Positions 8,536 to 62,355 of a stretch of DNA of 64,000 bases are shown one piece after another; position 1 is the first letter of the stretch; each line of letters opens with the position of its first letter. The position numbers were made by a program, and so were the translations under genes. Source of the stretch: Stegostoma tigrinum (taxonomy: Eukaryota); the NCBI RefSeq assembly GCF_030684315.1, contig NC_081363.1, positions 53,882,312-53,946,311 on the forward strand, in the 5' to 3' direction. The notes under the pieces are model-generated. The model was not told the origin of the DNA. It did not search any database and saw only the letters and a list, made by a program, of their open reading frames with translations.

Positions 8536-8635
8536 AAACAAAACCAGAATTGCTGGAAAAGCTCAATAGGTCTGGCAGCATGTGTGTATAGAAAACAGAG
8601 TTAACACTTTGTGCCCATTGCCCTCCTTCAGAACA
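8536..8635 (-). mobile_element. PLE-derived mini-element, single arm
   Basis: PLE tail-like sequence (ttgctggaaaagctcaataggtctggcagcat...ccttcagaa) with the TSD ggatttttg at 8527-8535 and 8636-8644. Confidence 0.7.
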
Positions 8636-9715
8636 GGATTTTTGTTTACCTTCAATTATCTTGCAACCCCACAAGCCTTAATGTTTGATAGAGGTTTCAA
8701 AAACTTTGTTTTTAAACACAAGGGAAACATTCATTGCTAAGAGAGGAAGAATTTTGAATTTGTCACTATTTGAGATTTCAGCAATCCTGCTAAGAACCTG
8801 GGTGTAGATGAGGGTGGTGCTGAGACGGGAAGGATACAGTAAACCAGGTTAGTGTGAAGTATTAGACTTAAACATAGATCAGAAGTGTTGAGTTAAAGTC
8901 CTAAAGAGTTTATCTAAACCTGAATATGTTTATAAACTCAGTTTTACAAAAGCTTGAGGAAGAAGTTATCTGCAATCCAATTCCATTTGTTAAAGTTACA
9001 AGTGATTTAAACCTATCCAGATCTTAGAAACTGAGATTCTGGGTATGTGATGATTTTGGATACTACATCAGAGAGATGTTTTGGGTAGTCTGCAAAACCT
9101 TGTTCTTCTTTTCAATTTACAAAATGTTTTGATGGATAGGATTATACTTGTGCTATGTTTAATGTATCTTTGATTTTGTGTTATGTGTAGTTAGTTTAGC
9201 TTAAGAGATTTTATCTTCATTGTTTTTGTTAATACACTTCTGTTTTAGTGCTAAATTTTAAAAAAAAGATCTGCAGCGTTGTGTGCTTATTTTTCAATGT
9301 AAGACCATTCTGTTAAAAACAACACAAATGAAATAAATTATCTAAAAAGCCAAGAGTCAGCAGAAGGACTGACTTGTACAATAACAATATCAAAGAGATT
9401 TAATATCAGAGACAATCCAAACAGAACACAAGAAGAAATAGATTTAAGAAACAAAAATGCTTCAAAATGAATACTAAGTTTGAAGCTGAACAAGTACACG
9501 TGTGACTGGATTCAGTTGATCTGACAGTGAACAATGTTGTGCAATGCCAAAACATGAATGAAGGCATACATACCTTTGAAATAAAGCAAATTCTAAGAGC
9601 TTTTTTGTTAACTACCTTAACCAGAAAGCAACACAATTCTCAGAAGGACATGACTTAAGAGAAGAGTCAGCTTCCAGGGAAATCTATGAACAATTTCAAT
9701 AATAACTTTGTTCAT

Positions 9716-9857
9716 AGATAGTAGGAACTGCAGATGCTGGAGAATCTGAGATATGCAAGGAGAAAATTTACTGAAGAAGGGTCTAGGCCTGAAATGTCAG
9801 CCTTCCTGCTCCTCTGACGCTGGTTGGCCTTCTGTGTTCATCCATCTCTACACCTTG
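9716..9857. mobile_element. PLE-derived mini-element (short inverted tail plus hammerhead arm)
   Basis: agatagtaggaactgcagatgctggag is followed by ctgaagaagggtctaggcctgaaatgtcag, a CpG-decayed hammerhead, and then the tail. Confidence 0.75.
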
Positions 9858-10809
9858 GAGATCACAATAATTACTTTGACAGTTTAGTGGAAAACTGAGA
9901 TTCTGGAGCTTTGAAATCAGAATTCATGAGATAGAGAATTAATTTTGGCATTATTGAAAAGTCTTTATCAGATTTATTCAGGTCAAAGAAGATTTTGTTT
10001 TGGATGGATCTATTTAAGTTACACTGGAGGCAGACCAATATAAGGACAACCTTATCAGAGGTGTGCATGAGAACCAAACCACTTCTTAAAGTACAAACAT
10101 TGTAAAACAATGACTGGTCAATACAGACAGTATGTTCAATAGTAATGTTAGCAATGAGGAACAATGAAGCCTAACAGGCACAAATCATACACAAGTATTT
10201 TTAAAAAGCTACATCTGTAAGGTTATAGGTTACTGATTCAGGTTGGGCAACATTTTTTAATGTGATCAGAAATCCTATTAATTTTAAAGCTGCATACAGA
10301 CATACACACCACTATCCTGTCAGATAAAATAACCATTGCTGGGAAGCAAAAGTTACAGCGTTTAGACATGAAACTATATGGTGAAACATAACTGATGAAG
10401 AAAGGAAAATCTGCAAAATAAACAAAAACAAGTCTGAAGAAATTCCATGAAAGGTGATTTGAAAAATCACAAACATGGCAATAAGTTTATATCTTGTTTC
10501 TGCTAATTTAAATTAAATCACCAGTGAAAAGCTCAAAATTTAACATTATCAAATAAAAAACAACATCGGCATCTTTCTGGCTGAACTAGTATAATGTACT
10601 TAATTATACTAAGAGACTACCTTGACTAGGACTATGTCAGGGTTTACCTCAATCACTGATTTGATTGATTGGTGGTTGCAGCGTTGATACATGGAGCACA
10701 AAAACATTATTGCCAGGTATTATCCAAAAGAGTATTTTGAAGTGATCTCATACCACCATTTTATTGCATCAATGAAAGTTGGTATCACATTTAATGAATC
10801 TTGTTTAGT

Positions 10810-12306: not shown

Positions 12307-12751
12307 CAAAGATGTGCAGAATAGGTGGATTAATGATGGGGAATGTATGGAGTGGGTCTGGGTGGGATGCTGTTCAGTGGATTGGTGTGGACTTGATGGG
12401 CTGAAAGTCTTGCTTCCACATTGTAGGGGTTCCAAGAGGTAAGATGAGAGAACAGTGTGACGGTGCAAGACCATACCACCACCACATAGTGGCTGCCTCT
12501 TTTTGTAAAAGGCAAATGAGCTGGTTTTGCTGTTTGTAAAGGAATTGAAATATGTTGAGAAACCACATAGAAATGCGTCATTAGCAGAAACAATGCATTA
12601 TATGCAATGATGCGTCAAATTGTTATCCTGTCTTCCTCTCTATGATATTGCAGTGAATTAAAAAAACCTTCAGTGCAATAACTTGAATTGTTTGGACTTG
12701 CATAGCATGTGAATAAAACATTTATTACCTTGTGGTCTAATAAACAGAAAG
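12307..12751 (+). repeat. Left arm of inverted duplication 1 (5'-truncated SINE plus about 320 bp of flank)
   Basis: Reverse complement of 14127-14559. The ORF peptides 12330..12593(-) and 14312..14599(+) are nearly identical. Confidence 0.95.
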
Positions 12752-14126: not shown

Positions 14127-14559
14127 CTTTCTGTTTATTAGACCACAAGGTAATAAATGTTTTATTCATGTGCTATGCAAGTCCAAACAATTCAAGTTAT
14201 TGCACTAAAGGTTTTTTTAATTCACTGCAATATCATAGAGAGAATGGGAGGATAACAATTTGTCGCATCATTGCATATAATGCATTGTTTCTGCTAAAGA
14301 CATATTTCTAAGTGGTTTCTCAACATATTTCAATTCCTTTACAAACAGCAAAACCAGCTCATTTGCCTTTTACAGAAAGAGGCAGCCACTATGTGGTGGT
14401 GGTATGGTCTTGCACAGTCACACTGTTCTCTCATCTTATCTCTTGGAACCCCTACAATGTGGAAGCAAGACATTCAGCCCATCAAGTCCACACCAATCCA
14501 CTGAACAACATCCCACCCAGACCCACCCCATACATTTCCCATCATTCTGCACATCTTTG
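14127..14559 (-). repeat. Right arm of inverted duplication 1
   Basis: ctttctgtttattagaccacaaggtaataaatg...ttctgcacatctttg is the reverse complement of the left arm. Confidence 0.95.
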
Positions 14560-14692: not shown

Positions 14693-15426
14693 TGAGCAAT
14701 TCATAGCACAGTAACACCTTTTCAGAGAGTTTAGACAGTGAGCAGAGTTATAATAGTTTGCATTACTGAGCATGAATAGCAATGAGGATCTGAAATTGGA
14801 AGAAAGGGACTATTCCATGAATTGATTGTGGTGGTATGATTAGTTGATTCTAAAGGAGGCTACTTGCTCATTTGGCTGTGTAACGTACTGCAACAGACAT
14901 TCAATATACCTTGAAGGAATATGCTTGAGAAATCATTACTTTATCCTGGCATATGACCTAATGGTATTCTGCAGGCAATCTTCATCTTACTAAGCTCTGC
15001 TGTCTTGCAGAATGAAACGCTGTGGGAAGCTTGCTATAGTACATCCAAATTTCTTAAGGTAAGGAATACTTGTGATTGTCATGTTCGTGTGTAAATACTA
15101 GGTGGTATATAAAAGGTAATTAAGTTCTTCAGTACTATGTGTCCTAGGTCTCATTTGTGTTAGTGAAGCTAACATTAGCATCATAGCGAGATAATTGCAT
15201 ATTATCAACTATCACACCTTACCACATCATTTCATATGTCTCAGGGACACAGTCTTCAAAAGATGCCAACAGTTTCAATGCTAATGGCCAAGTGGGAGAA
15301 TTTCACAAGACATTTCCACAGCATTGCAGGATGTTTCTCATCAACTGCAGAATGTTATCAAACTTTCACAAACCAAAAAAAATCTACAGCTTCAAGATCC
15401 TAGAAACAGCTTCTCAGATATTGCTT

Positions 15427-16712
15427 CAGCATGGATTTAGTAAGGGGAGGCCATGCCTGACAAATCTGTTAGAATTCTTTGAAGAAGTAACAAGTATGTT
15501 AGACCAGGGAAACCCAGTAGATGTTATCTATTTAGACTTCCAAAAGGCCTTTGATATGGTGCCTCATGGGAGCCTGCTGAGCAAGGTGAGGGCCCATGGT
15601 GTTCGAGGTGAGCTACTGGCTTGGATTGAGGAATGGCTATCTGACAGAAGGCAGAAAGTTGGGATAAAAGGCTCTTTTTCGGAATGGCAACCGGTAATGA
15701 GTGGTGTCCCGCAGGGTTCAGTGTTGGGGCCACAGCTGTTCACCTTACATGCTAATGATCTGGATGAAGGGGCCGGGGGCATTCTGGAGAAGTTTGCCGA
15801 CGATATGCAGATAGGTGGACAGGGAGGTAGTACTGAGGAGGTGGGGGAGCTACAGAAAGATTTAGACAGTTTAGGAGAGTGGTCCAGGAAATGGCTGATG
15901 AAATTCAATGTAAGCAAATGTGAGGTTTTGCACTTTGGAAAAAAGAATACAGGCATGTACTATTTTCTAAATGGTGAGAAAATTCATAAAGCAGAAGTAC
16001 AAAGGGATCTGGGAGTTTTGGTCCAGGATTCTCTAAAAGTTAACTTGCAGGCAGGGTCCGTGATTAAGAAAGCGAATGTAATGTTGTTGTTTATCTCAAG
16101 AGGATTGGAATATAAAAGTAGTGATGTGCTTCTGAGACTTTATAAAGCTCTAGTTAGGCCCCATTTAGAATACTGTGTCCAATTTTAGGCCCCACTGCTC
16201 AGGAAGGACATACTAGCCCTGGAGCATGCCCAGCGGAGATTCACACGTATGATCCCTGGAATGGTAGGCATAACGTATGATGAATGGCTAAGGATCCTGG
16301 GATTGTACTCATTAGAGTTTAGAAGATTGAGGGGAGATCTAATAGAAACTTACAAGATAATGTATGGCTTAGAAGGAGTGGACGCTGGGAAGTTGTTTTC
16401 ATTAGGTGGGGAGACTAGGACCCTTGGGCATAGCCTTAAAATTAGAGGGGATAAATTTAAAACGGAAATGAGACGACATCTCTTCAGCCAGAGAGTGGTG
16501 GGCTTATGGAATTCATTGCTGCGGAGTGCAGTGGAGGCCAGGACGTTACATGCCTTCAAGGCAGAGATTGACAAATTCTTGATCTCACAAGGAATCAAGG
16601 GCTACGGGGAGAATGCAGGGAAGTGGAGTTGAAATGCCCGTCAGCCATGATTTAAATGGAGGGGTGGACTTGATGGGCCGAACGGCCTTACTTCCACTCT
16701 TATGTCTTATGT
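15427..16712 (+). mobile_element. 5'-truncated CR1 LINE (RT C-terminal half plus 3' UTR), relatively young
   Basis: Encodes QHGFSKGRPCLTNLLEFFEEVT, VDVIYLDFQKAFD, SGVPQGSVLGP, FADD, YKALVRPHLEYCVQF and FSQRVVGLWNSL. A TAG replaces Trp at 16186-16188, and the tail is cttatgtcttatgt. Confidence 0.95.
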
Positions 16713-16855: not shown

Positions 16856-17066
16856 AAGATAACAAGGTGTAGAGTTGGATGAACACAGCAGGCCAAGCAG
16901 CATTTGAGGAGCAGGAAAGCTAATGTTTCTTCATTTCTGAAGAAGGGCCCAGAACCAAAACGTTTAACTTTGCTGCTCGTGTGGTGCTGCTTGGCCTGCT
17001 GCGTTCATCCAGTTCCACACCTTGTTATCTCAGATTCCCCACTATCAGCAGTTCCAACTATCTCTA
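16856..17066. mobile_element. PLE-derived fold-back mini-element with 11-bp TSD
   Basis: Inverted arms agataacaaggtgt...cagcaggccaagcagca / tgctgcttggcctgctg...acaccttgttatct. The TSD ataaacctaaa lies at 16845-16855 and 17067-17077. Confidence 0.85.
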
Positions 17067-18207: not shown

Positions 18208-18704
18208 AGATAATAAAATGTGAGGCTGGATGAACACAGCAGGCCCAGCAGCATCTCAGGAGCACAAAAGCTGACGTTTCGGGCCTAGCCCCTTCATCAG
18301 AGAGGGGGATGGGGTGAGGGCTCTGGAATAAATAGGGAGAGAGGGGGAGGTGGACCGAAGATGGAGAGAAAAGAAGATAGGTGGAGAGAGTATAGGTGGG
18401 GAGGTAGGGAGGGGATAGGTCAGTCCAGGGAAGACGGACAGGTCAAGGAGGTGGGATGAGGTTAGTAGGTAGGAGATGGAGGTGCGGCTTGGGGTGGGAG
18501 GAAGGATGGGTGAGAGGAAGAACAGGTTAGGGAGGCAGAGACAGGTTGGACTGGTTTTGGGATGCAGTGGGTGGAGGGGAAGAGCTGGGCTGGTTGTGTG
18601 GTGCAGTGGGGGGAGGGGACGAACTGGGCTGGTTTAGGGATGCGGTGGGGGAAGGGGAGATTTTGAAGCTGGTGAAGTCCACATTGATACCATTGGGCTG
18701 CAGG
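18208..18704 (-). mobile_element. Young PLE 3' fragment (end of GIY-YIG plus 3' UTR) with 7-bp TSD
   Basis: Nearly identical to 58968-59462. It encodes LQPNGINVDFTSFKISPSP..., and the TSD gaatgct lies at 18201-18207 and 18705-18711. Confidence 0.92.
18270..18303 (-). ncRNA. Minimal hammerhead ribozyme motif (second copy)
   Basis: The minus strand reads CUGAUGAAGGGGCUAGGCCCGAAACGUCAG. The core is intact and there is one substitution in stem II. Confidence 0.72.
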
Positions 18705-18815
18705 GAATGCTTAACATTTTTTTCAGTACAAGGCCTTCTGCATGAGAGCTGGGGCATATGACAGCAGGATGGGAAATACCCAGCTCCTCATTAAGACACA
18801 CAGAGTTTAAACCAG

Positions 18816-19099
18816 AAAGTAATACAGTGTGGAGCTGGAGGCACACCGCAGACCAGGCAGCATCAGAGGAGCAGGAAAGTTGGCATTTTGAGTCGGGACC
18901 CTTCTTCAGAAATGGGGCTCCACATTAGGGTTATAAATCACTCAGAGATAATAAGAACTGCCAATGCTGGAGTCTTAGATCACACAGTGTGGAGCTGGAG
19001 GAGCACAGCCGGCTAGGCAGCATCAGAGGAGCAGGAAAGTTGATGTTTCTGGTTGGGAGTCTTCTTCAAACTCCAATATTGGCAGTCCTTACCATGTCA
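18816..19099 (-). mobile_element. Two tandem PLE-derived tails plus a short inverted end
   Basis: There are two copies of cagtgtggagctggagg...agcatcagaggagcaggaaagttg...cttcttca. A possible shared TSD taaaccag lies at 18808-18815 and 19100-19107. Confidence 0.7.
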
Positions 19100-20210: not shown

Positions 20211-22268
20211 AGAGTCATAGAGGTGTACAGCATGGTGAAAGATCCTTCAGACCTACTCATCCTTGCTGACCAGTCATCCTCAATGAATCCAGTGCTCATT
20301 TTCCAGCATTTGGCCCATATCCTTCTAAACCTTCCGATTCATATACCTATCCACATGCCTGTTAAATGTTGTAATTGTACTAGCCTCCATCATTTCTTCT
20401 GGCAGCTCATTTCCATAAATACACCACCCTCTGCATGAAAATGTTGCCTCTGAGATCCCTTTTAAATCTTTCCCCTCTCACCTTCTATTGACATCCTCTA
20501 GTTTTGGGTTCCCCCACTCCAGGGAAAAAAAAATCCTTGTCTATTTTCCCTATCCATACCTCCTCATGATTTTATAAACCTCTATAAGATCACCCCTCAG
20601 CTTTCGACGCTCCAGGGAAAATAGCCCCAGCCTATTCAGACTCTCCCTATAACTCAACCCGTCCCCCCCCAAATCCTGGCAACACCCGTGTAAATCCTTT
20701 CTGAGCCCTTTCAAGTTTCGCAACATCCTTCCTATAGCAGGGAAACCAGAATTGCATGCAGTATTCCAGTAGTGACCTAACCAATGTCCTGCACAAGCGC
20801 AACATGACCTCCCAACTACTATACTCAATGCACTGGCCAATAAAAGCAAGCATACCAAATGCCTTCTTCATTATCCTGTTTACCTGCAACTTCATTTTCA
20901 AGGAAATATGAACCTGCACTCCAAGGTCTCTGTTCAGCAACATTCTCCAGGACCTTAGCATTAAGTGCATAAGTCCCACCCTGATTTGCCTTTCCGAAAT
21001 GCCACGTCTCACACTTATCCAAATTAAACTCCATCTACTACACTTCAGCCCATTGCTTCATCCGATCAAGATCCTGTTGTACTCTGAGGTAATCTGCTGT
21101 CCAATACACCTCCAATTTTAGTGTCACATGCAAGCTTACTAACTATATCTCCTATGTTCACGTTCAAATCATTTATATAAATGATGAAAAAGCAGTGGAC
21201 CCAGTACTGATCCTGTGTACACCACTGGTCAGAGACCTCCAGGCTGAAAAGCAAGTCTCCACCACCAAAACCCTCTGTCTTCTGTCTTTGAGCCAGTTCT
21301 GTATCTAAATAGCTAGCTCTCCCTATATTGTTCTATCGTTGCTAACCAGTCTACTATGAGGAGCCTTGTCAAATGTTTTACAGGAGTCCATATAGGTCAC
21401 ATCCACCTCTCTGGTTTCATTAATTCTCCTTGTTACTTCTTCAAAAAACTCAATTAAATGAGTGAGACATGATTTCCCATGCACAGAGCCATGTTGACTA
21501 CTCCTAATCAGTCCTTGTCTTTCCAAATACATGTAAATTCTCTCCCTCAGGATTCCCTCCAACAACTTGCTCACCATTGAAGTCAGGTTCACCAATCTAT
21601 AGTTCTCTGGCATTTCCTTACCACCTTTCTTAAATAATGGCACCACATTAATCAACCTCCACTCTTCCAGCACATCAGCTGTGGCTATTAATGATACAAA
21701 TATCTCAACAAGGGGCCCAATGATCACTTTCCTTGCTTCCAACTGAGTTCTGGGGTGCATCTGATCAGGGCCTGGGTATTTACCTACCTTCATGTATTTT
21801 AAGCTGTCCAGCACCTCCTCCTTTGTAGTATGGACATTTTTCAAGATGTCGCTACTTATTTTCCCATGTTCTATATCTTCCATCTCCTTCTCCAAAGTAA
21901 ATACCAAAGCAAAATACTTGTTTAGTATCTCCCCCATATCCTAAGGCTCAATGCATAGTCGGCCTTGCTGATCTTTAAGGGGCCCTAATCTCTTACTAGT
22001 TACCCTTTTGTCCTTAATGTATTTGTAGAATCCTTTTAGATTCTGCTGAACCCTATTTACCAAGGCTATCTCATGTCCCCCTTTTGCCCCCCTGATCTCC
22101 CTCTCAAGTATACTCCTACTGTCTTTATATTCTTCTAGGGATTCACTCCAATTTTGCTCTTTATACCTGATATATGCTTCCTTCTTTTTCTTGACCAAAA
22201 CCTCAATTTCTCTAGTCATTCAGCATTCCCCACACCTACTAGACTTGCCTTTCACCCAAACAGGAACA
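20211..22268 (-). mobile_element. Decayed CR1 LINE (ORF2 linker, RT and tail)
   Basis: Minus-strand peptides include PGPDQMHPR, NVVPLFKKG, NYRLVNLTS, SQHGSVHGKSCLTHLIEFFEEVT, MEFNLDKCE and LGLFSLERRKLRGDLIEVYKIM. Confidence 0.93.
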
Positions 22269-22625
22269 TAACTTTGTCTGCTTGTCACCTGTCTGGAATT
22301 TTAGGGAAGGTGGCAGAGATGTCAGATGGTTTTGTGGGCCTTATAAGGCTCTGAGTGACCAACAAATAACCACTTAAGAACCTCATAGCACCATTGTCAA
22401 CATCTGGTTTTACCTAAAGTGACAGCAGTCTTGCGCTGTACTAGAAAATTCTCAAGTGAGGGATGGAGTTCACATGCAGTCTTCCCATATCCTGAGCCAC
22501 TCCTCCCCGAAACTGCGAACCCCTACTGCAATACTTCCTGCACCCTCCAATTCCAGTCCGAACTTCCTCCCCCAACTAAATAAAAACCTTTGACCGTGTA
22601 ATCACCACCAATTCTCCAACTGCAA

Positions 22626-22755
22626 TTCTGAAGAAAAGTCATACCGGACTCGAGATGTTGACTGTCACAATCTCCACAGATGCTGCAGGCCTGCTCAGTT
22701 TCTTCAGAATTCTGAGCTTCTTTCAGATTTTCAGCACTCACAGTACTTTACCTTT
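22626..22755 (+). mobile_element. PLE-derived mini-element, single arm
   Basis: It starts with ttctgaagaaaagtc...gagatgttgact (decayed hammerhead), followed by cagatgctgcaggcctgctcagttt. Confidence 0.65.
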
Positions 22756-24127: not shown

Positions 24128-24262
24128 AATAAAAACCGAAAGAGCAGATGCTATAAATCAGAAACAAAAACAAAAGTTGCTGGAAAAGCTCAGCAGGTCT
24201 GGCAGCATCTGTGGAGAGGAATCAGAATTAATTTCGTGGGTCTGGTGAGGAAGGGTCACTGG
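24128..24262 (-). mobile_element. PLE-derived mini-element
   Basis: Contains gttgctggaaaagctcagcaggtctggcagcatctgtggagag and resembles the copies at 8536 and 62252. Confidence 0.65.
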
Positions 24263-24347
24263 AATCTTGTGTCCAAAGCTAAAATAAACCTCGGCTGCCT
24301 GTTCTTTTGGATTTACTCTGCTTAATTACATTCTCAGTTTGGAGACG

Positions 24348-41453: not shown

Positions 41454-41615
41454 GATAACAAAGTGTGGAGCTGCATGAACACAGCAGGCCAAGCAACGTG
41501 GACACAGCAGGCCAAGCAGCATCTGCTCCTAAGATGCTACTTGGCCTGCTGTGTTCATCCAGCTCCACACTTTGTTATCCCAGATTCTCCAGAATCTGCA
41601 GTTCCCATTATTTCT
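41454..41615. mobile_element. PLE-derived fold-back mini-element with about 17-bp TSD
   Basis: Inverted arms gataacaaagtgtggagctg / cagctccacactttgttatc. The flanks are agtaaaaaaaaacttcaa (41436-41453) and agtaaaaaacacttcaa (41616-41632). Confidence 0.85.
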
Positions 41616-42305
41616 AGTAAAAAACACTTCAACAAGGTTTATTTCATAAAGCCCTGTTCATTGATCTTTCCTTTTTGTATGATCTCCAGTATAACTTGGG
41701 AAACTTTTTACATTTTTCCTCAAGATAATGGATAATGCTAATGTAATTTTTTTTTATCAACTTTTGGTAAATAACTTTGGTTTAAAATGTCCAATGCATT
41801 CTTACAGTATTTCACAACTGTATCTATGAGCATATTTTTTCACCATCCCGAAAGCACTTCACACTTCATTGTAACTTCCAACTTTTTATTTGTATGATTA
41901 ATGATGGTTGGTATCTTTTATAAGACAATTCTTTACAAAGTAAGTAACTGAAAAACTCAACAAATTATATTCAATTATTATTAGAAGATGAATCTTGTAA
42001 TTACTACACTCCTCGTTTGATAGGCCACTGTCAATGGTCTTGAAAAATCCCCAAGTCTACCACAGATTATCCTGGAAGGGCAAAGGGTCTCAAAAATTCC
42101 ATCAAAAGGTTAAACGAACTGTCTCATGGTGCTACAAGACAGTAAGACTTTACCATACAGCCAAAAATAAGTTCTGCCTATTGCACATATGAATAATATG
42201 GTATATGATTTTCAGTGCTTGTCTATGCCAGGTGTGTAGGTCGTACGCCCCAAGTGATCATATCATACCCCTTCAGGAATTTACTACAAACAAGGTCCTG
42301 ATGAT

Positions 42306-42955: not shown

Positions 42956-43473
42956 AGTTGGGAGGCCATATTGCAGCTGTATAGGGCATTGGCTCAGCCA
43001 CTAATGGAATACGGCATGAACCCTAGTCTCCATGCTATAGGAAGGATGTTGTGAAAGGATTCAGGAAAGACTTACAAGGATGTTGCCAGGGTTAGAAGGT
43101 TGGAGCTATAGAGAGAGGCTGAGTAGGTTGGGGCTATTTTCCCTGGAGCATCAGAGGCTGAGCGGTGATCTTACAGATGTTTATGAAATCATCAGGGCAC
43201 GGATATGGTAAGTAAACAAGGTAATGGAATCCCTACAGTGTAGAAAGAGGCCCTTCAGCCCAATAAGCCCGCACAAACCCTGAGAGCATCCCACCTAGAC
43301 CCATCCCCCTATAAGCCACCTAATCTACACATCCTTGAACACTACAGGCAATTTAGCATGGCCAATCCACCTAGCCTGCATACCTTTGAATGAGGAAACC
43401 GGAGCACCCGGAGGAAACCCACACAGACACAGGGAGAATGTGCAAACTCTACACAGACAGTGGCCCGAGGGTG
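42956..43473 (-). repeat. Left arm of inverted duplication 2 (518 bp)
   Basis: Reverse complement of 44941-45458, including the identical CR1/SINE junction. Confidence 0.95.
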
Positions 43474-43538: not shown

Positions 43539-43751
43539 TTGGTGTTTTCTCTGGGTTTGGGGAGTCCAAAACTAAAAGCATAGTTTGAAATGAGGGGGAA
43601 AGATTTAAAAAGGGGTATAAGGGACAACTTTTTCACACAGAGAGTAGTGTGTGTATGGAATGAACCACAGGAGGAAATGGCGGAGACTGGTACAATTACA
43701 ACATTTAAAAGGCATCTGGATAGGTATATAAATAGGAAGGCTTTAGAGGGA

Positions 43752-44443
43752 GTGATAATGGGAACTGCAGATGCTGGAGAATCCAAGATAATAAAATGTG
43801 AAGCTGGATGAACACAGCAGGCCAAGCAGCATCTCAGGAGCACAAAAGCTGACGTTTCGGGCCTAGACCCTTCATCAGAGAGGGGAATGGGGTGAGGGTT
43901 CTGGAATAAATAGGGAGAGAGGGGGAGGCGGACCGAAGATGGAGAGAAAAGAAGATAGGTGGAGAGGAGAGTATAGGTGGGGAGGTAGGGAGGGGATAGG
44001 TCAGTCCAGGGAAGACGGACAGGACAAGGAGGTGGGATGAGGATAGTAGGTAGGAGATAGAGGTGCGGCTTGGGGTGGGAGGAAGGGATGGGTGAGACGA
44101 AGAACAGGTTAGGGAGGCAGAGACAGGTTGGACTGGTTTTGGGATGCAGTATACCACATTGGCAGATGTGCAGGTGAACCTCTGCTTAATTTGGAAAGTC
44201 ATCTTGGGGCCTGGGATAGGGGTGAGGGAGGAGGTGTGGGGGCAAGTGTAGCATTTCCTGCGGTTGCAGGGGAAGGTGCCGGGTGTGGTGGGGTTGGAGG
44301 GCAGTGTGGAGTGAACAAGGGAGTCACGGAGCGAGTGGTCTCTACGGAAAGCAGACAAGGGTGGGGATGGAAAAATGTCTTGGGTGGTGGGGTCGGATTG
44401 TAGATGGCGGAAGTGTCGGAGAATGATGCGGAGGATGTGTCGG
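43752..44443 (-). mobile_element. Young PLE 3' fragment with internal deletion, inserted into a CR1, with 14-bp TSD
   Basis: Same family as 58968-61347 (SAFRRDHSLRDSLV...PCNRRKCYTCPH). The TSD aggctttagaggga lies at 43738-43751 and 44444-44457, and CR1 sequence resumes after it. Confidence 0.93.
43848..43881 (-). ncRNA. Minimal hammerhead ribozyme motif (third copy)
   Basis: The minus strand reads CUGAUGAAGGGUCUAGGCCCGAAACGUCAG, identical to the copy at 59029-59062. Confidence 0.8.
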
Positions 44444-44940
44444 AGGCTTTAGAGGGATATGGGCCAAATGCTGGAAAATGGGACTGAACTTACTTCGGAT
44501 ATCTGGTTAGCATGGATGAGTTGCACCAAGGGGGTCTATTGCTCTGCAGTACAACTCTCTGATTCTATGACACAATATATAATGTAAACCTGTATTTAAG
44601 AAACAGGTCTTTTTCATACCATACCACACTGGATTATATTCTACGCAGACACATCAATGAATTCTTCTGTATTCATTCAATTCTGTATGAATTCTTTATT
44701 GCAATTGTTATTCAGTCCTCTCAACATAAACATAATGATCAGGGGACCCACAGGTATCGCTTGAGGCTGAGCATTGGAGAAACTGCTAATGAGATATATG
44801 CTCTTGAATATCCAACAGTTCTTTATATCTGTGATAAGGGAAAGGAGGCAGGCACAAGAGAGGATCAACAAAAGCAACATGATGGCACAAGGGATTCTGC
44901 ATGCAGAAAAGTGAGAGATATAAGCCATAGAAGCATGAGT

Positions 44941-45458
44941 CACCCTCTGGCAACTGACTGTGTGGAGTTTGCACATTCTCCCTGTGTCTGTGTGGGTTTC
45001 CTCCGGGTGCTCCGGATTCGTCCTTCAAAGATGTGCAGGCTAGGTGGATTGGCCATGCTAAATTGCCTGTAGTGTTCAAGGATGTGTAGATTAGGTGGCT
45101 TATAGGGGGATGGGTCTAGGTGGGATGCTCTCAGGGTTTGTGCGGGCTTATTGGGCTGAAGGGCCTGTTTCTACACTGTGGGGATTCCATTACCTTGTTT
45201 ACTTACCATATCCGTGCCCTGATGATTTCATAAACCTCTGTATGGTCACCGCTCAGCCTCTGATGCTCCAGGGAAAATAGCCCCAACCTACTCAGCCTCT
45301 CCCTATAGCTCAAACCTTCTAACCCTGGCAACATCTTTGTCAGTCTTTCCTGAATCCTTTCACAACATCCTTCCTATAGCATGGAGACTAGGGTTCATGC
45401 CGTATTCCAATAGTGGCCGAGCCATTGTCCTGTACAGCTGCAACATGGCCTCCCAACT
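44941..45458 (+). repeat. Right arm of inverted duplication 2 (headless SINE plus CR1 flank)
   Basis: gggattccattaccttgtttacttaccatatccgtgccctgatgatttcataaac mirrors about 43179-43233. Confidence 0.95.
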
Positions 45459-46128: not shown

Positions 46129-46350
46129 AGATAGTAGGAACTGCCAGTGCTGGAGAATCTAAGATAACACGGTGTGAAGCTGGATGAACACAGCAGGTCA
46201 AGCAGCATCATAACAGCAGGAAAGTTTGGCATTTCGGGTTGAAACACCCATTTTCTGAAGAAGAGTCTTGATCCAAATCATCAAACTTTCCTGCTGTTAT
46301 GATGCTGCTTGGCCTGCTGTGTTCATCCAGCTTCACACCATGTTATCTTA
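46129..46350. mobile_element. PLE-derived fold-back mini-element with near-perfect ~65-bp arms
   Basis: taagataacacggtgtgaagctggatgaacacagcagg...catcataacagcaggaaagtttg pairs with caaactttcctgctgttatgatg...cttcacaccatgttatctta. A decayed hammerhead sits in the centre. Confidence 0.85.
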
Positions 46351-48437
46351 CTCTCTCTGCAAAAATGGTTTTCCGGGACACAGGAAGTATCCCAGAGTTC
46401 CCAAACAGTAAGGTTCGTAAATTCTAGAGGTTGAAGCAGTCTTTCCATTATTGTTAAACATTGTTCATTCTGATAAACCCTGATATTAGTAAACTTTCAT
46501 AATTCTAATACACAAAATTAGGTAATTAACTGAATGTGTGTTGAAATCAATGCCAAAGGAATAAGTGAAACCTTTGCTTTAGTAAAGATTTATGAGCTCA
46601 AAGTCATCCATTCTTTGTGAAGAATGGTAATTCAAAGTTAGCAGGACAGCCATCCCAGCCACAAGGGATTGATGTTTTACTAACTAGCTAGAAAGATAAT
46701 GTTGGGAGAATTTCACATAGCCACAGTAATGGGGCAGGTTTTGGGGCTGTTTGAAGATGTACAACAGTCTTCATCAAATTAGACTGATTGTGTTATAAAT
46801 AATACAGTGGAGAAGAATTAAAACTCATAACATATCGAAAAGGGAAACAATGCAAGCTTGAAAAATGGAACTTCTTGATGAATGTGGAAACGATATAAAT
46901 AATGAAGAGAGCAGCGCTAGTAGAAGACAGTTCAAATTTAGTCATTTTCTAGCAAGAAAACCTAAAAATAGAAGAGACTTCAGTGCATGAAGGAACAATT
47001 ACAAAGGAGATAGAATCACATCTATCCAGGCAGCGAAGGATATGGATATCTCAGTTTTAGACCTGGATGTCTCAAGTTTCAGGAATAAATTAGGCATGGA
47101 TGAATTTGGTGAAGAGGCAGGAGACAATATTGTATGATCAACCATTGCACTGGTTGAGTGAATATATGGTTTTCCTTTCATCGGAGAACTAAAATGCCCA
47201 GCAAAGAGTAACAGGTAGTAACTCCTTGTCATAGAATGTCACTTAGTTATAATCATGGTGGACCTATTCGGTCAGCGTGGTAGAAACCACATGGAAAGCA
47301 ATGAGAGATGAGAGGCCAAAGAAGTCAACTCTATATGCCACTAGATCGTAGAAAAAATCTAAATCAGGGAATTCATAGTTTTTATGATATTGTGGTTCAT
47401 TAAAATGGTCAAATAACCAGTAGTAGCACCTAAATGTATGAGTTGGCTGGACTGAATCTCTGCTATCATCCTCTGATTAATTTGGGATCTACAGGGCATG
47501 CTTTGTATAGTTTGATTAAGAAAAGCCACCGGGTAGTCTGAGAAGAGGCTCTTGTCTTGAATGTTATGGATGATAAGAGTAAGCACAAGTTATATTTGTA
47601 AGATAGACATTGATGCAAAGGCTGTTGTTGAGAGATTCAAATGATAGGTTTATCTTCTTTGAGATTCAGATCTACTTTGCCCATCTAAATCTGTATGACA
47701 ACTGAGTGGAGTTTAAGACACTCCTCAGCATTAATCCTTTAGGGGTCAAATACCCTGTAAAATAACAAACAACCAAGGGAAGGCAGAGATATTCCTATAC
47801 TATTTGCTGCAAATAGTATAGGAAATGGATTAAAAATGAAAATATAATTCTGGATATGAGGCTCAATTACGACAAATCAAATATAACATATGTGAAATAT
47901 GCTGCTGATTTGCTATTGCTTGTTATCCAATGTTGACAAGTCAAAATTACCTCTGTGTCTTATATAAACTAGCCTGTTAAGAAGGAAGCATTGATGAATG
48001 CAAATGTGTAACTTAGAAAGTAAAGCTGTGCATTACCAATAAAACTGCAGTATTCCTATAAAAGTAGAACATTTTCACAGCGTTGCATGCTTAGTGAAAA
48101 TTTGTTTCTCTGAACGCAAGTTTTCAATTTAAAAACACTGCTAGGCAAAAGGCAGCTATTGCTCAGTCACTGTGTTAATTGCAAATCTTAATGCTGTTCA
48201 CTTATTTTACAAGCAATAACTGAGAATAACAGATTAGATGGGCAAATGTGGTCAGGACATCAAGTGCAGCATACAATTACATTTGTAGAATATGCTCCTG
48301 GCGAAATCTGCAAATTATCCTTAAAATTTGTTTAACCAGAGATAATTTTGACTTGGGACATTAATGGGAGATACTGTGGGCAAGAATTCAGCTCTGGTCA
48401 CAGCCTAAATTCCAGGCAGAAAAGTGCGCAAAATATC

Positions 48438-48545
48438 ACGGTGTTGATCTGGATGAACACAGCAGGTCGAGCAGCATCAGAGGAGCAGGTGAAAGCTGAT
48501 GTTTCAGGTCGAGACCCAGCATTGGCAGTTCCTACTATCTCTGTC
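48438..48545. mobile_element. PLE-derived mini-element with 9-bp TSD
   Basis: Reads ctggatgaacacagcagg...gctgatgtttcaggtcgagaccc and then an inverted cagcattggcagttcctactatctct. The TSD caaaatatc lies at 48429-48437 and 48546-48554. Confidence 0.75.
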
Positions 48546-48807: not shown

Positions 48808-49007
48808 GGACAATAAAAAACTGCAGATGTTGGAATCCAAAGTAGACAATCAAGAGGCTGGAAGAACACAGCAGGCCATGCAGCATCTGGAGGAAAAGAG
48901 CAGTCGACATTTTGTGTATTACCCTTCTTCTGGACTTGAAATGTTGGCTGCTCCTTTCTTCCAGGTGTTGCCTGGTCTGTTGTGTTATTCCAGCCTCCTG
49001 TTTGTAT
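48808..49007. mobile_element. PLE-derived fold-back mini-element at the 5' end of a tRNA pseudogene
   Basis: Inverted arms gaggctggaagaacacagcaggcc / ggtctgttgtgttattccagcctc. The TSD core caagaaag lies at 48800-48807 and 49013-49020. Confidence 0.7.
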
Positions 49008-49640
49008 AATAGCAAGAAAGCCTAGCCATCTCTGCAATTTGCAAAGTACAGAACTGGAACCGACAGTATTCATGCAGCCAGGGCTTAGACACTCAAATTA
49101 CCGAATTGCCTGGTTGGGTACTAATGGCCATTGCTGTGGAACAATTCAGTGTTTAAACCAAATTGTTACATCTACTTTGTTAGAAGAATGTTTCGCAGAC
49201 TTGGTGGCATCCAGCTCAGTAGGAAGCTGGAGGCCGAGTGAGACAAGGACAGCACTTGACTTGAAGGTTCAAAATAGTGTTGTGTGACCTCCAAATATGG
49301 AATGTAGACAGCTCACTGGATCTTCCTGCCCTGGCATTGGACACAGGCCAGACAATTTGGGAAGGACGTGAACGAAGGAATAAAAGAGATTGCCTGGAGG
49401 TCCAGCTATCTCTGCTTTTGCACTTTCTTCAATAGTTCTTGTGGAGATATCACAATCTGAAGACTAGAATTAGCCCTAGACGAGAGGGGGAGCCCAAGAT
49501 TTACGAGTGCAGGTCCTGAAACATCAGCCAATCCTCAAAGACCAAGGAATAGCCTGTCCAAGATTTACTGGATGTGTATTACCAGTCCTTTCACACAAAA
49601 AGTTCAAATACCATGGTAGAGACCTGCGGGTATGGTCCAT

Positions 49641-50956: not shown

Positions 50957-51109
50957 TAGCATTTGACAGTTGAAGGTTCAAAACAGTGTTGTGGGTCTTC
51001 CAAATACAGAATGTAGACAGCTCACAGGACCTTCCTGACCTGGCCTAATGAGAGCAGTAGACATGGACCGTAGAATTTGGGAAGGGCATGAAGGGGGCTA
51101 TAAAATGTT

Positions 51110-51185
51110 ACCTGGCCTGCTGTGCTGCTCCAACTCCACACTGTGTTACTTCTGACTCCAGAATCAGCAGTTCTTACTATCTCTG
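51110..51185 (+). mobile_element. PLE-derived tail inserted in an LTR-like segment
   Basis: cctggcctgctgtgctgctccaactccacactgtg...gttcttactatctct is absent from the paralogous segment at about 49380. It has degenerate flanking repeats gctataaaatgtt / gcttaaaaagtt. Confidence 0.7.
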
Positions 51186-52287: not shown

Positions 52288-53323
52288 CTACAGTCCAAAG
52301 ATGTGCAGTCTCAGTCGATTGGCCATGCTAAATTGCCCGTAATGTTCAGGGGTATGTAGATGAGGTGGGTTAATAGGGTGATGGGTCTGGGTGGACTTAG
52401 AACAAAGAATAAAGAAAATTACAGCACAGGAACAGGCCCTTTGGTCCTCCAAGCCTGCACCAATCCACATCCTCTATCTAAACCTGTCACCTATTTTCCA
52501 AGGATCTGTATCCCTCTGCTCCCTGCCCATTCATGTATCTGTCTAGATGCATCTTAAATGATGCTATTGTGCCCGCCTCAACCACCTCTGCTGCCAATGC
52601 GTTCCTGCCACCCACCACCATCTGAGTAAAGAACTTTCCACACATATCTCCCTAGAACTTTGCCCCTCTCACCTTGAAATTGTGACCTGGGTAATTGAAC
52701 CCCAACTCTGGGAAAAAGCTTCTCGCTGTCCACCCTGCCTATACCTCTCATGATTTTGTAGGCCTCAATTAGGTCCCTTCTCAACCTCCATCTTTCTAAT
52801 GTAAATAATCCTAATCTACTCAACTTCTCTTCATAGCTAGCGCCCTCCATACCAGGCAATATCCTGGTGAACCTCCTCTACACCCTCTCCAAAGTATCGA
52901 CATCCTTTTGGTAATGTGGCAACCAGAACTGTACACAGTATTCCAAATGTGGTTGAATCGAAGTCCTATACAACTGTAACATGACCTGCCACCTCTTGTA
53001 CTCAGTACCCCGTCTGATGAATGAAAGCATGCCATATGCCTATTTGACCTCTTTATTGACCTGCGTTGCCATCTTCAGGGTATAATGGACATGAACACCC
53101 AGATCTCTCTGTGCATCAATTTTCGCCAGGGCTTTTCCGTTTGCGATATAGTTCGCTCGTGAATTGGATCTTCCAAAAAGCATCACCTCACATTTGCCCG
53201 GATCGAACTCCATCTGACATTTCTCTGCCCAACTCTCCAATCTATCTATAGCCTGCTGCATTCACCGACAGTTGGGCTGAAGGGCCTGTTTTCACACTGT
53301 AGGGATTCTGTGATCTATGATCT
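52288..53323 (+). mobile_element. 5'-truncated HE1-type SINE split by a CR1 insertion
   Basis: The SINE core runs to gtggactt (52398) and resumes as gttgggctgaagggcctgttttcacactgtagggattct at 53271. Confidence 0.85.
52399..53270 (-). mobile_element. 5'-truncated CR1
   Basis: Encodes WAEKCQMEFDPGKCEV and SYEEKLSRLGLFTLERWRLRRDLIEAYKIMRG, with the tail agaacaaagaataaagaa. Confidence 0.92.
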
Positions 53324-57970: not shown

Positions 57971-59028
57971 GAACCAGTAGTGTTTAGAGAAATTAACATC
58001 CCTTTTTCTTTCTTTTCAAAAAGATCCTTTGCAACATTTCAGTTATAATCCAGCCCTCCAGAGGGTTTTAGCAAGTCAAAATTATCTGTAATGCCTGGAA
58101 CTTGACTTGTTGGAACAACTTTTAGAACTTAACAATCATATTGGTAGCTAAACTCACAAGCTGCTTCACTCTAAAATTTCCCCACAGATTTGCCCTAAAA
58201 TTGAATGTTTCATGCCAACAAACTTGACTTCCTGAGCTCCTGGCTTGATTTAGTACTTTGACTTGACATTCTGTCTTTAAGTAATCTCCAAAAATCAAGA
58301 ATTTTGCGCATAATTTTCCTGCAAATACTCTTGCACAGCTCCTAGTTGACCCTGGATGAGTGCATTTTATAACAAAAAGCTCCCATGGCAAGACCATTAG
58401 GGAAGGTGAGTCAATTAGTAAATACTGGAACAGCAGAGAATTTTGTAAATGTTTACAACAAATCAAACTTGTTGAGCATCTAAAAAAGCATAACAGCCAA
58501 TGTAACGCAACACCTTTGTTTAACATAACAGTTCATTCAACAGTTTACTTTCCGACAATAATTCTGTTTGCCTCCATGTTAAGGGTCAAAGCTGCTTTTA
58601 TTTTTAAACAGTCCAAGGACGCAAGTTATGAAATGCTGTGAAATTTAAGTTACGTTGAGAATATCTGTGAGATGGAGCAGAACGATTGTTTGCAGTGAAC
58701 AACCATTCTAAGTTCATTCTGTAAGCAATTACTCATTTAAATCATGAGCAAACTCTCCTGCAGGAGTTTACTGAATAAACATCAATCTTTTTATAGACAA
58801 GACAAAGATGAAGCCACATGCCAAAAGTGAACAGTGTCTGAAGGAGAGCCCATTCAGTGCCAAGAAGAAAGTGGTATTTATATGGAACCTGGCTGGTACT
58901 GTCTCAAGAGCCCGTTGCCATAGAAATGTTTACTATGTCTCTCCAAAGCATATCACAGAGGAAGTAAGACAACAAAATGTGAGGCTGGATGAACACAGCA
59001 GGCCAAGCAGCATCTCAGGAGCACAAAA

Positions 59029-59062
59029 GCTGACGTTTCGGGCCTAGACCCTTCATCAGAGA
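59029..59062 (-). ncRNA. Minimal type-I hammerhead ribozyme motif in the PLE 3' region
   Basis: The minus strand reads CU-CUGAUGA-A-GGGU(CUAG)GCCC-GAAA-CGUC-AG. This gives the conserved CUGANGA and GAAA cores, a stem II, a palindromic ACGU in place of stem III, a GUC cleavage triplet and a very short stem I. It matches the minimal hammerheads known from Penelope-like elements. Confidence 0.8.
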
Positions 59063-59283
59063 GGGGGATGGGGTGAGGGTTCTGGAATAAATAGGGAGAG
59101 AGGGGGAGGCGGACCGAAGATGGAGAGAAAAGAAGATAGGTGGAGAGAGTATAGGTGGGGAGGTAGGGAGGGGATAGGTCAGTCCAGGGAAGACGGACAG
59201 GTCAAGGAGGTGGGATGAGGTTAGTAGGTAGATGGGGGTGCGGCTTGGGGTGGGAGGAAGGGATGGGTGAGAGGAAGAACAGG

Positions 59284-61270
59284 TTAGGGAGGCAGAGACA
59301 GGTTGGACTGGTTTTGGGATGCAGTGGGTGGAGGGGAAGAGCTGGGCTGGTTGTGTGGTGCAGTGGGGGGAGGGGTCGAACTGGGCTGGTTTAGGGATGC
59401 AGTTGGGGAAGGGGAGATTTTGAAACTGGTGAAGTCCACATTGATACCATTAGGCTGCAGGGTTCCCAGGCGGAATATGAGTTGCTGTTCCTGCAGCCTT
59501 CGGGTGGATTCATTGTGGCACTGCAGGAGGCCCATGATGGACATGTCATCTAAAGAATGGGAGCGGGAGTGGAAATGGTTTGCGACTGGGAGGTGCAGTA
59601 GTTTGTTGCGAACTGAGCGGAGGTGTTCTGCAAAGCGGTCTCCAAGCCTCCGCTTGGCTTCCCCAATGTAGAGGAAGCCACACCGGGTACAGTGGATGCA
59701 GTATACCACATTGGCAGATGTGCAGGTGAACCTCTGCTTAATGTAGAATGTCATCTTGGGGCCTGGGATGGGGGTGAGGGGGGAGGTGTGGGGGCAAGTG
59801 TAGCATTTCCTGCAGTTGCACGGGAAGGTGCCGGGTGTGGTGGGGTTGGAGGGCAGTGTGGAGCGAACAAGGGAGTCACGGAGAGAGTGGTCTCTCCGGA
59901 AAGCAGACAGGGGTGGGGATGGAAAAATGTTTTGGGTGGTGGGGTCGGATTGTAGATGGCGGAAGTGTCGGAGGATGATGCGTTATATCTGGAGGTTGGT
60001 AGGGTGGTGTGTGAGAACGAGGGGAATCCTCTTTGGGCGGTTGTGGCGGAGGCAGGGTGTGAGGGACATGTTGCGGGAAATACGGGAGACGCGGTCGAGG
60101 GCGTTCTCGATCACTGTGGGGGGAAAGTCGCGGTCCTTGAAGAACTTGGACATCTGGGATGTGCGGGAGTGGAATGTCTTATCGTGGGAGCAAATGCGGC
60201 GGAGGCGGAGGAATTGGGAATAGGAGATGGAATTTTTGCAGGAGGGTGGGTGGGAGGAGGTGTATTCTAGGTAGCCGTGGGAGTCGGTGGGCTTGAAATG
60301 GGCATCAGTTACAAGCTGGTTGCCTGAGATGGAGACTGAGAGGTCCAGGAAGGTGAGGGATGTGCTGGAGATGGCCCAGCTGAACTGAAAGTTGGGGTGG
60401 AAGGTGTTGGTGAAGTGGATGAACTGTTCGAGCTCCTCTGGGGAGCAAGAGGCGGCGCTGATACAGTCATCAATGTACCGGAGGAAGAGGTGGGGTTTGG
60501 GGCCTGTGTAGGTGCCGAAGAGGGACTGTTCCACGTAACCTACAAAGAGGCAGGCATAGCTGGGGCCCATGCGGGTGCCCATGGCCACCCCCCTTAGTCT
60601 GTAGGAAGTGGGAGGAGTCAAAAGAGAAGTTGTTGAGGGTGAGGACGAGTTCGGCTAGGCGGATGAGGGTGTCGGTGGAGGGGGACTGTTCGGGCCTGTG
60701 GGACAGGAAGAAGCGGAGGGCCTTGAGGCCATCTGCATGCGGAATGCAGGTGTATAGGGACTGGACGTCCATGGTGAAGATGAGGTGTTGGGGCCCAGGG
60801 AATTGGAAGTCCTGGAGGAGGTGGAGGGCATGGGTGGTGTCACGGACGTAGGTAGGGAGATCCTGGACCAAAGGGGAGAAGATGGAGTCCAGATAGGTGG
60901 AGATGAGTTCGGTGGGGCAGGAGCAGGCTGAGACGATTGGTCGACCTGGGCAGGCAGGTTTGTGGATTTTGGGAAGGAGATAGAAACGGGCCGTGCGGGG
61001 TTGGGGAACAATGAGGTTGGAGGCTGTGGGTGGGAGGTCCCCTGAGGCGATGAGGTCATGAATGGTGTTGGAGATGATGGTTTGGTGCTTGGGTGTGGGG
61101 TCATGATCGAGGGGGCGGTAGGAGGTGGTGTCGGAGAGTTGGCGTCTGGCCTCAGCGATGTAGAGGTCAGTGCGCCATACTACCACTGCGCCACCCTTGT
61201 CTGCGGGTTTGATGGTGAGGATGGGGTTGGACCAGAGGGAGCGGAGGGCTGCCCGTTCTGCGGGGGAGAG
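59284..61270 (-). pseudogene. Disrupted PLE RT/GIY-YIG reading frame (one frameshift, one stop, N-terminus missing)
   Basis: The frame changes at the C homopolymer near 60587-60593 and there is a TAA at 59983-59985. Past the stop the frame reads RIILRHFRHLQSDPTT...GPKMTFYIK straight into the GIY-YIG ORF. Confidence 0.88.
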
Positions 61271-62251
61271 CTGTGGGTGGGAGGTCCCCTGAGGTGATGA
61301 GGTCATGAATGGTGTTGCTGTGGGTGGGAGGTCCCCTGAGGTGATGGTCACAGAGGAAGTAATTTTAGTTCTGCTTGATGATGCTAAGGAATAGCCATTT
61401 TCACTTCACTTTAATATCTTTGCAGTATTGTAATCATAAAAATGACTCTCCAGAAACATTTTTAAATTCTAGAGTTCTTTTTGATCTGAGTATGTTGATT
61501 TTTGTTTATATTTACCTAATCCCAGGTATGAAAGTTTGTTAGATGCACCCATTAATTACTGGGGATTTGGCTACAGATGCATAATGCCCAGATTTTTCCA
61601 TTTGTCTTTTGATTACATTGGATGAAAAATACAATTAAGTCAAACAGGCTTCACAAATGTTGGGAACGTTGTTTGGATTTTGCGGACGAATGCTCTGTAC
61701 ATTTATGCTTCGAAGCTACACTTTGAGGTTATTAGGCTGTCAAAGCTGCGTGTCATCTTTCATTGTGGGGAAAAGAAATGTGTTTCTTCAATCAGAATGA
61801 AGAATCCTTGCTCTGGCATGTGGGGCTTGATTTTTAATCACCTTTGTTGGGGGGTGGGATTGGTGAGTCCCTGTTTTAATAATAGCACCGCCAAGGATAT
61901 GCCGGTCTTCCAAGGCATTTGGAATGCATAACTATTTTTAAATTTGGTGGGTTCGTCAACAACTCAGTCACATCAAATTAACTATCGATTGAAATTTTTG
62001 GAGGACACTGCTAATGATCTTGGGAGGACCAGAAGACAACCTTCAAAGGCAGAACAAATAAAATTGAACAATGTATTACAAACTAATTGGATGAAAGATA
62101 GGGAGCCATTAAGGTTTGTTTATGCTTAATGAACGATTTTGATAACACTCAGTTTGTCTACATTTTCATTGACCATTTGTCTGCAACAAGAGATTACTGG
62201 ATCTCTTGATTTCTCTGTTGTGTAAGGCAGTAACTGTTACATGACTTCATG

Positions 62252-62355
62252 CATTCTGAGAAAGGGTCACCGAACCCAAAATGTTAACTCTGCTTTTTTT
62301 TCTTCGTGGATGCTGCCAGACCTGCTGAGCTATTCTAGCAACTTTGTTTTTGTTT
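62252..62355 (+). mobile_element. PLE-derived mini-element with 11-bp TSD
   Basis: It starts with cattctgagaaagggtcaccgaacccaaaatgttaac (decayed hammerhead). The TSD atgacttcatg lies at 62241-62251 and 62356-62366. Confidence 0.8.

Follow-up and report, generated by a model that had tools for sequence, protein, structure and literature searches.

Why do short, hammerhead-headed repeat copies scattered through one shark locus begin at nearly the same base? The locus is a 64,000-nucleotide (nt) stretch of Stegostoma tigrinum DNA (contig NC_081363.1, positions 53,882,312 to 53,946,311; hereafter the window, whose coordinates are used throughout), in which a first-pass annotation had proposed an undescribed class of short non-autonomous elements, resembling short interspersed elements (SINEs) or retrozymes, that would be mobilised by Penelope-like elements (PLEs) and share a 5' boundary at the hammerhead. 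We find that these copies represent a feature of a known element class and not a categorically new system; what appears to be new is the 5' boundary. Within the element, the C that opens the hammerhead CUGA box is +1, and upstream positions are negative.

The first step is to identify the parent. The short module is the 3' end of long copies encoding a reverse transcriptase (RT) and a GIY-YIG endonuclease (EN), such as the 2.4-kb copy at 58968-61347, whose open reading frame (ORF) pieces are frameshifted and fall in the order RT, thumb, C-x4-C-x2-C linker and GIY-YIG. The parent is therefore an endonuclease-positive (EN+) PLE. Pieces of the parental ORF matched GIY-YIG and HTH_animal/RVT_1 clusters in the Atlas at 0.95-0.97, together with Pfam GIY-YIG at E=0.005 and RVT_1 at E=0.04, both below the curated cut-offs and none at 0.001; a PDB sequence search with the N-terminal RT piece returned nothing significant. 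The linker could be read in the ORF pieces at 59284-59982 and 43834-44448. Since a CX2-5CxxC linker preceding GIY-YIG marks Neptune or Nematis in the accessible text of PMC8557442, the C-x4-C-x2-C arrangement places the parent with these two groups, and it is probably of Neptune type. The long copies are as follows.

58968-61347, minus strand: longest copy of subfamily Y, 2.4 kb; 5'-truncated; intact core with its C at 59059; target-site duplication (TSD) of 15 bp.
43752-44443, minus strand: young Y copy with tail and an internal deletion; intact core with its C at 43878; TSD of 14 bp.
18208-18704, minus strand: young Y copy, 5'-truncated at -405; intact hammerhead core; TSD of 7 bp.
4463-5501, arms in both orientations: long insert of group M, its arms head to head; the left one reaches about -170 and the right one, which has a GIY-YIG remnant, about -657; TSD of 10 bp.

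The deletion in 43752-44443 joins the 3' untranslated region (UTR) to the region upstream of GIY-YIG, inside a single 14-bp TSD. The tail at 4463 is itself bounded by an 11-bp direct repeat.

Arms of the 3' module were collected by profile from 14 slices of the window, yielding 27 matches; with one internal duplication merged, these form 26 arms in 20 insertions, counts that omit three tail-only inverted fragments. Nine of the 20 insertions are two-armed, carrying an inverted, 5'-truncated partner, and 13 have a TSD (at least 9 bp exact, or at least 10 bp with one mismatch). Among random position pairs, 0 of 400 scored 9 or more with a slack of ±8, and 3 of 150 did so with wide slack. The 3' ends of the arms fall at two sites, +92 to +100 (the short site) or +126 to +130 (the tail end), separated by a 35-nt tail. 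Short and long copies thus share the same kind of TSD, the same 35-nt tail and the same head-to-head arms. In three insertions the partner arm is little more than an inverted tail (9717-9753, 19070-19095 and 48518-48541). We also observed a word resembling T/C-T-C-T-G-A at each of these two 3' sites and at the hammerhead start, which seems to co-vary by subfamily (4463-4500, 31844-31880, 18944-18980, 51145-51185 and the 5' boundary of core-bearing arms).

The copies and arms that bear on the 5' boundary are listed here; the starts of the arms with cores at 9771, 16937, 19069, 46255 and 48932 were defined by eye from junctions, to within 2-3 nt.

8536-8635, minus strand: single-arm short copy, subfamily B, running from -4 to the short 3' site; TSD 8527-8535 / 8636-8644, 9 bp exact; decayed core.
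36172-36272, plus strand: single-arm short copy, subfamily S1; 5' end at -4; TSD 36163-36171 / 36273-36281, 9 bp exact; decayed core.
62252-62355, plus strand: single-arm short copy, subfamily B; 5' end at -4; TSD 62241-62251 / 62356-62366, 11 bp exact; decayed core.
18794-18916, minus strand: single-arm short copy, group M; 5' end at -7; TSD 18783-18793 / 18917-18927, 11 bp with 1 mismatch.
22626-22755, plus strand: B-like hammerhead-plus-tail module; true 5' edge probably further upstream; C-rich DNA at 22490-22625.
9711-9864, both orientations: two-arm insert; inverted tail 9717-9753 on the minus strand and a plus-strand arm with an intact core (C at 9771) starting at about -3; TSD 14 bp with 1 mismatch.
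16856-17066, both orientations: head-to-head insert; left arm stops at about +21, right arm with tail starts at about -6 (core C at 16937); TSD 11 bp.
18941-19095, both orientations: two-arm insert; minus-strand main arm with tail, starting at about +1 (core C at 19069), and an inverted tail fragment; weak TSD, 11 bp with 2 mismatches.
46130-46352, both orientations: head-to-head insert; left arm stops at +9, right arm starts at about -6 (core C at 46255); weak TSD with 2 mismatches.
48808-49009, both orientations: head-to-head insert; left arm starts at about -3 (core C at 48932), right arm at about +14; TSD 11 bp with 1 mismatch.

The three cleanest TSD-bounded copies (8536, 36172 and 62252) all start exactly at -4. 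The clean TSDs that the first-pass annotation had claimed for them are borne out at 9, 9 and 11 bp exact, as is its placing of the arms at about 9771, 16935 and 46254 near the boundary, where we put the starts at about -3 to -8 (cores at 9771, 16937 and 46255). Its claim that short copies start at the hammerhead core holds for those three copies and fails for the fourth that it named, 22626, which has no TSD at the proposed edge and C-rich DNA upstream. Candidate TSDs place the start of the latter at -35 or further up, and the upstream DNA is 40% C against 40-50% in the 3' UTR of long copies (95th percentile of the window, 39%), so this copy is probably longer than 22626-22755. The copy at 18794-18916 and the arms at 19069 (+1) and 48932 (-3) had been missed. 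The former carries 19-20 nt of unexplained sequence at its 3' end; a retrozyme dimer formed by 18794-18916 and 18941-19095 was considered and rejected, as they resolve as two insertions.

Over all 26 arms, nine 5' ends lie between -7 and +1, 11 between +9 and +47 and six beyond -8, the latter two groups having been left out when a shared boundary was first described. The densest 10-nt interval holds nine of the 26 (p=0.0035 under a constant hazard; p=0.0014 under a uniform distribution from -60 to +50), and the earlier argument that random 5' truncation is insufficient therefore stands, the boundary being non-random at p ~0.004 under constant hazard. Beyond it there is a wall: 20 of the 26 arms stop at or before -8, and none of the six that pass stops within the next 125 nt (p=0.0002 at the inside hazard, or ~0.004 by hand if 22626 starts at -35 and one passing arm stops there), a distribution that fits two classes of template. 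The boundary is thus a peak plus a wall, and not a rule. Self-cleavage was rightly set aside as its cause, because a cut after +28 would leave ends at +29, where there is no large listed pile of 5' ends. Groups M and Y lack an AG at -4 to -1, and for them a splice acceptor at this place, as known from D. virilis, was rejected. The other insertions in the window are as follows.

31844-31998, both orientations: head-to-head insert; arms stop at about +35 and about +21; no TSD found.
41454-41618, both orientations: head-to-head insert; arms stop at about +45 and about +36; small internal duplication; TSD 14 bp with 1 mismatch.
48438-48545, both orientations: two-arm insert; minus-strand main arm from +9 and an inverted tail fragment; TSD 9 bp.
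24134-24278, minus strand: B-type arm from about +12; tiny fold-back at the 5' junction; weak A/T-rich TSD.
51103-51185, plus strand: arm with tail, from about +47; no TSD found.
63824-63904, plus strand: arm from about +37; no TSD found.

Beyond the window, we aligned contigs from four publicly available runs for this organism (X1, X2, X17 and X18; 161,963, 212,868, 2,106 and 3,635 records, respectively), at 88% likeness or more, to the 3' part (43730-44150) of the young Y copy at 43752-44443. Bisulfite runs X14-X16 were excluded because conversion would bias matches, and the depth of X17 and X18, runs of unrecorded kind, was left unused. Counts of loose ends are lower bounds, taken from the 24 listed of about 1,394 loose-end rows. 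The largest listed 5'-side pile stands at -1 in all four runs (at least 688, 626, 21 and 20 contigs), with a second at -4 in X1 (at least 154), and contigs ending at -4 include ones at least 88% like the young ORF-bearing subfamily Y. At the 5' pile in X1 and X2 the loose parts have a median length of 255, are A/T-rich toward the far end and agree with one another at 0.35-0.38, against 0.38-0.44 at true 3' ends; long and heterogeneous parts of this kind fit unique flanks. Those in X17 and X18 are shorter (medians 57 and 85). On the 3' side, X1 and X2 show piles at +93 and +125/+128 (at least ~390-650 contigs each), while a listed pile at +82 resembles subfamily divergence. In X1 the 5' ends at -1/-4 stand to the four listed 3'-side piles as 842:1,895, similar to the nine of 26 in the window. 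A 3- to 4-fold step in contig depth at the core was not counted as evidence, since conservation among subfamilies is higher in the module than upstream of it. Taken together, the boundary is real and probably a genome-wide feature.

Some contigs carry joints. Head-to-tail joints from the tail end to -3 (128 nt) occur in at least 16 and at least 14 contigs, amounting to a few head-to-tail dimers. Direction aside, the best-supported listed joints run between the tail end and the short 3' site of the other strand (43750-43754 to 43787-43799; up to 49 contigs in X1 and 45 in X2). Two listed head-to-tail joints in X2 (43850 to 43754 and 43782) start at +29, the first base past the predicted ribozyme cut, and other starts are listed too.

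Do the short copies form a family of their own? Pairwise identity among short copies and arms is 49-88%, in agreement with the earlier view that they belong to several subfamilies. In a tree of the 15 core-bearing arms, the single-arm short copies require at least three origins on well-supported branches, and no bootstrap tree (0%) has a single origin, which excludes one clade apart from long PLEs. Within group M, short and long copies are not separated in this 15-row tree, and the short-copy arm at 18909 shares 84% identity with the long arm at 4588. Over their whole length, short copies align to the PLE 3' module, with no non-PLE head, and have no Rfam match to tRNA, 5S or 7SL. They are hence not one SINE family and comprise at least three lineages. 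What remains of the class first proposed is its non-coding nature and its mobilisation by a PLE; its separateness is not supported, given the multiple origins, the grouping of some copies with long ones and the lack of a non-PLE head.

As for the ribozyme itself, the family is predicted from its sequence to bear a minimal type I hammerhead in its pseudo-long terminal repeat (pLTR), of the form given in the accessible text of PMC4209133. Four of the 15 core-bearing arms retain an intact core, namely the three young Y copies and 9771, and none of the four single-arm copies first named does so; the term hammerhead therefore suits the family and not those copies. Several of the core losses are G-to-A changes next to C, which would match the pattern of CpG decay. 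Helices I and II are 72% paired, against 15-54% in slid controls, with modest covariation (8 of 500 shuffles were as high). Minimum-free-energy folding does not recover the hammerhead, and the six copies that were folded do not exceed shuffles in stability (z -0.5 to +1.6). Rfam scanning gave no hammerhead match, and in two-arm inserts only chance matches to miRNA-like hairpins.

How, then, could insertions acquire a 5' end at -4? The explanation we favour, to which we give about an even chance, is that the stubs are run-off cDNAs, primed internally at the tail sites and ending at the 5' end of an RNA that begins just before the hammerhead. Genomic copies that keep a pLTR promoter would make RNA starting at about -4, and RT would start at one of the two internal tail sites of this RNA. 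The priming sites would then lie ~97 or 130 nt from the RNA start, such that complete copying would yield a stub of fixed length. Twin extension would produce two arms meeting at or before the -4 limit, with arms that stop early mostly ending at the inverted-arm junction, and long copies would derive from RNAs starting further upstream. The stubs would accordingly arise repeatedly as a by-product of several PLE subfamilies and, once inserted, would decay neutrally. Head-to-tail joints to -3 fit template jumping at the end of such a template. In both long M arms the A of an initiator-like word, YYANWYY, falls exactly on -4, and in all three Y copies the C of a TCT-like motif does so, by the usual definitions of the two motifs. 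Precedents exist in the accessible texts of two papers. In PAc, a Poseidon element of Anolis, RT initiates internally on uncut RNA at two tail-defining sites, cutting and extension involve both DNA strands, and the reaction does without ribozyme cleavage in vitro (PMC11167929); the Penelope element of D. virilis has its promoter and start site within the pLTR (PMC2377424).

A number of observations weigh against this explanation or the boundary on which it builds. Under the most conservative null, uniform and restricted to -10 to +50, the peak alone gives p=0.056. The -1 pile is partly confounded, its counts being lower bounds from the 24 listed rows, and its loose letters open with a shared 7-base stretch, implying that related subfamilies and fold-back junctions contribute to it. 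The tail end of subfamily Y shares eight bases with -4 to +4, which could itself yield head-to-tail joints. Motifs of the kind seen at -4 are common in this pyrimidine-rich region (2-4 initiator-like and 1-6 TCT-like words per 160 nt) and consequently lend weak support, and the three cleanest copies begin with T, T and C, not A. All three Y copies in the window are long. In the D. virilis Penelope, transcription starts at 371 and an intron spans 416-491 (PMC2377424), with the hammerhead just after the intron (PMC4209133), hence ~120 nt from the start and not 4, as far as the accessible parts of both papers show.

An alternative with an appreciable, though minor, chance of being correct is that the template is long and that RT dissociates where helix I ends on its outer side, or where a protein occupies the recurrent motif. 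Position -4 is the exact outer end of the four-column helix I, in which -4 to -1 pair with +29 to +32 and the two inner pairs are kept in 13 of 14 rows with compensatory changes. The T/C-T-C-T-G-A-like word recurs at both 3' sites and again at the 5' boundary, and protein binding has been suggested to aid folding of PAc RNA into the hammerhead in the available text of PMC11167929. Bases upstream are also able to fold back on stem II in centroid structures. Helix I is weak, however, with 66% of its cells paired and one column pairing in 4 of 14 rows only, and none of the six folded copies exceeds shuffles in stability. A pause alone would leave unexplained the 125 nt without stops in the arms that pass. 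Moreover, RT normally stalls when entering a helix, not when leaving it.

A broader scenario, which we regard as doubtful, is that sharks possess a short-copy PLE pathway in which the hammerhead marks a promoter, the unit from -4 to the tail is self-sufficient, and each subfamily spawns self-propagating ribozyme-headed elements of ~100/130 nt; these would be the PLE counterpart of SINEs, the direct precursor of retrozymes and among the commonest shark repeats. A rival reading, in which several independent, short, non-autonomous masters keep the whole ribozyme and amplify themselves through PLE protein as hammerhead-headed, SINE- or retrozyme-like elements, appears distinctly unlikely as the general explanation, although it is possible that some subfamilies had independent short masters. 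The S1 pair (9771 and 36176, 88% identical) and the B pair (8631 and 62256) each form a supported short-only clade in the window, where the lack of long S1 or B copies within 64 kb carries little weight. Genome contigs do contain the 128-nt head-to-tail joints, and non-autonomous PLE derivatives are known (MRC1, in the accessible text of PMC8557442, and non-LTR retrozymes). Yet the short copies have no non-PLE head or promoter sequence, their cores have decayed, and -4 ends are also found among contigs like the young ORF-bearing subfamily. The 64-kb window contains no tandem array with intact cores, and the joints amount to ~2% of the listed X1 loose ends at -1/-4 (16+3 vs 842).

Cutting of a longer cDNA intermediate by the GIY-YIG endonuclease at the recurrent motif is very improbable. 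EN-mediated resolution has been proposed for the tail (PMC8557442), and the preference of PAc EN for ATT (PMC11167929) would suit group M, which has ATTT at -4 to -1; subfamily Y, however, has CTCT there and still ends at -4, and the tail was later attributed to RT initiation rather than cutting (PMC11167929), as read in the accessible portions of both papers. That the boundary merely marks the end of homology between subfamilies, helped by small numbers, is hardly credible: it holds for 22626, part of the depth step and part of the -1 contig pile, but four copies are bounded by TSDs and five by partner-arm junctions, all independent of homology, and three end on the same base.

Other repeats share the window. 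Two pairs of inverted repeats, 42956-43473 / 44941-45458 (518 nt) and 12332-12751 / 14127-14546 (420 nt), are 95% complementary and ~1.4 kb apart, the former bracketing the PLE copy at 43752-44443. At 15187-16632 and 20647-21940 lie what we take, from their motifs, to be RT remnants of CR1/L2-like long interspersed elements. A further dispersed family (D15, D17; 3134-3286, 12340-12432, 45026-45187 and 52296-52372) presumably resembles the shark SINE HE1.

With respect to known systems, the window copies are, by behaviour and membership, truncated EN+ PLE insertions, and their anatomy is ordinary PLE debris. As described in the accessible parts of PMC8557442 and PMC3846280, EN+ insertions of Neptune and Nematis with truncated or inverted pLTRs share the RT and GIY-YIG domains, the CX2-5CxxC linker, the pLTR hammerhead, an optional tail of 30-40 bp (35 bp here), head-to-head arms and TSDs of 7-15 bp; those parts describe truncation as variable, without a pile of 5' ends at the upstream edge of the hammerhead. 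We did not find such a shared boundary in the PLE literature, coverage of which was incomplete and without Repbase and Dfam. Pattern scans turned up no useful relatives, with two matches in metagenomes and none in viral contigs or prokaryote genomes. The role of the PLE hammerhead has been called 'still a mystery' (PMC7761336), and a boundary at -4, not at the cut site, offers a single-base prediction of how PLE insertions obtain their 5' ends. If true, it would account for the abundance of lone minimal hammerheads in genomes and suggest a possible source of retrozyme units.

The dispersed minimal hammerheads of Cervera and de la Pena (2014; PMC4209133) have the same type I core, with a bulged base before helix II and a palindromic CG replacing helix III, and comprise thousands of single motifs with some close opposite-strand pairs, read there as truncated PLEs; in the available text, insert boundaries and TSDs are unmapped and sharks unmentioned. 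PAc (Frangieh et al. 2024, PMC11167929) likewise has two sites of internal RT initiation, which lie ~110-120 nt below the start of the hammerhead, but belongs to another clade, and its ORF starts at stem II, where the corresponding ATG is here unconserved and in Y opens no more than 13 codons; the main text, as accessible, reports no preferred 5' end, and the coverage plots of its Fig. S2 may bear on our claim. Non-LTR retrozymes (Li et al. 2026, bioRxiv 10.64898/2026.07.22.740005, in its accessible part; PMC7761336) are similarly non-coding, pLTR-derived, hammerhead-bearing and PLE-dependent, with solo 'monomers' widespread, and are defined in that accessible material by tandem units with at least two complete hammerheads and by circular RNA. 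The copies in the window are instead dispersed, TSD-flanked, end at PLE tail sites and have mostly decayed cores; they are not retrozymes under that definition. Schistosome hammerhead SINEs carry a promoter of their own (PMC6765202, accessible text). Finally, the repeat is not entirely undescribed, as the first-pass annotation had supposed: both probe primers of NSRE1, a repeat with a ~100-nt core of which a 2006 nurse-shark BAC paper (PMC1513397) reported 17 copies over 170 kb, match the module, giving 4 and 9 matches in the window when up to 3 mismatches are allowed, against 0 by chance. In the accessible text of that paper NSRE1 was left as an unclassified shark-specific repeat, without a PLE link, hammerhead, TSDs or boundary; this long-unclassified shark repeat can now be assigned to the PLEs.

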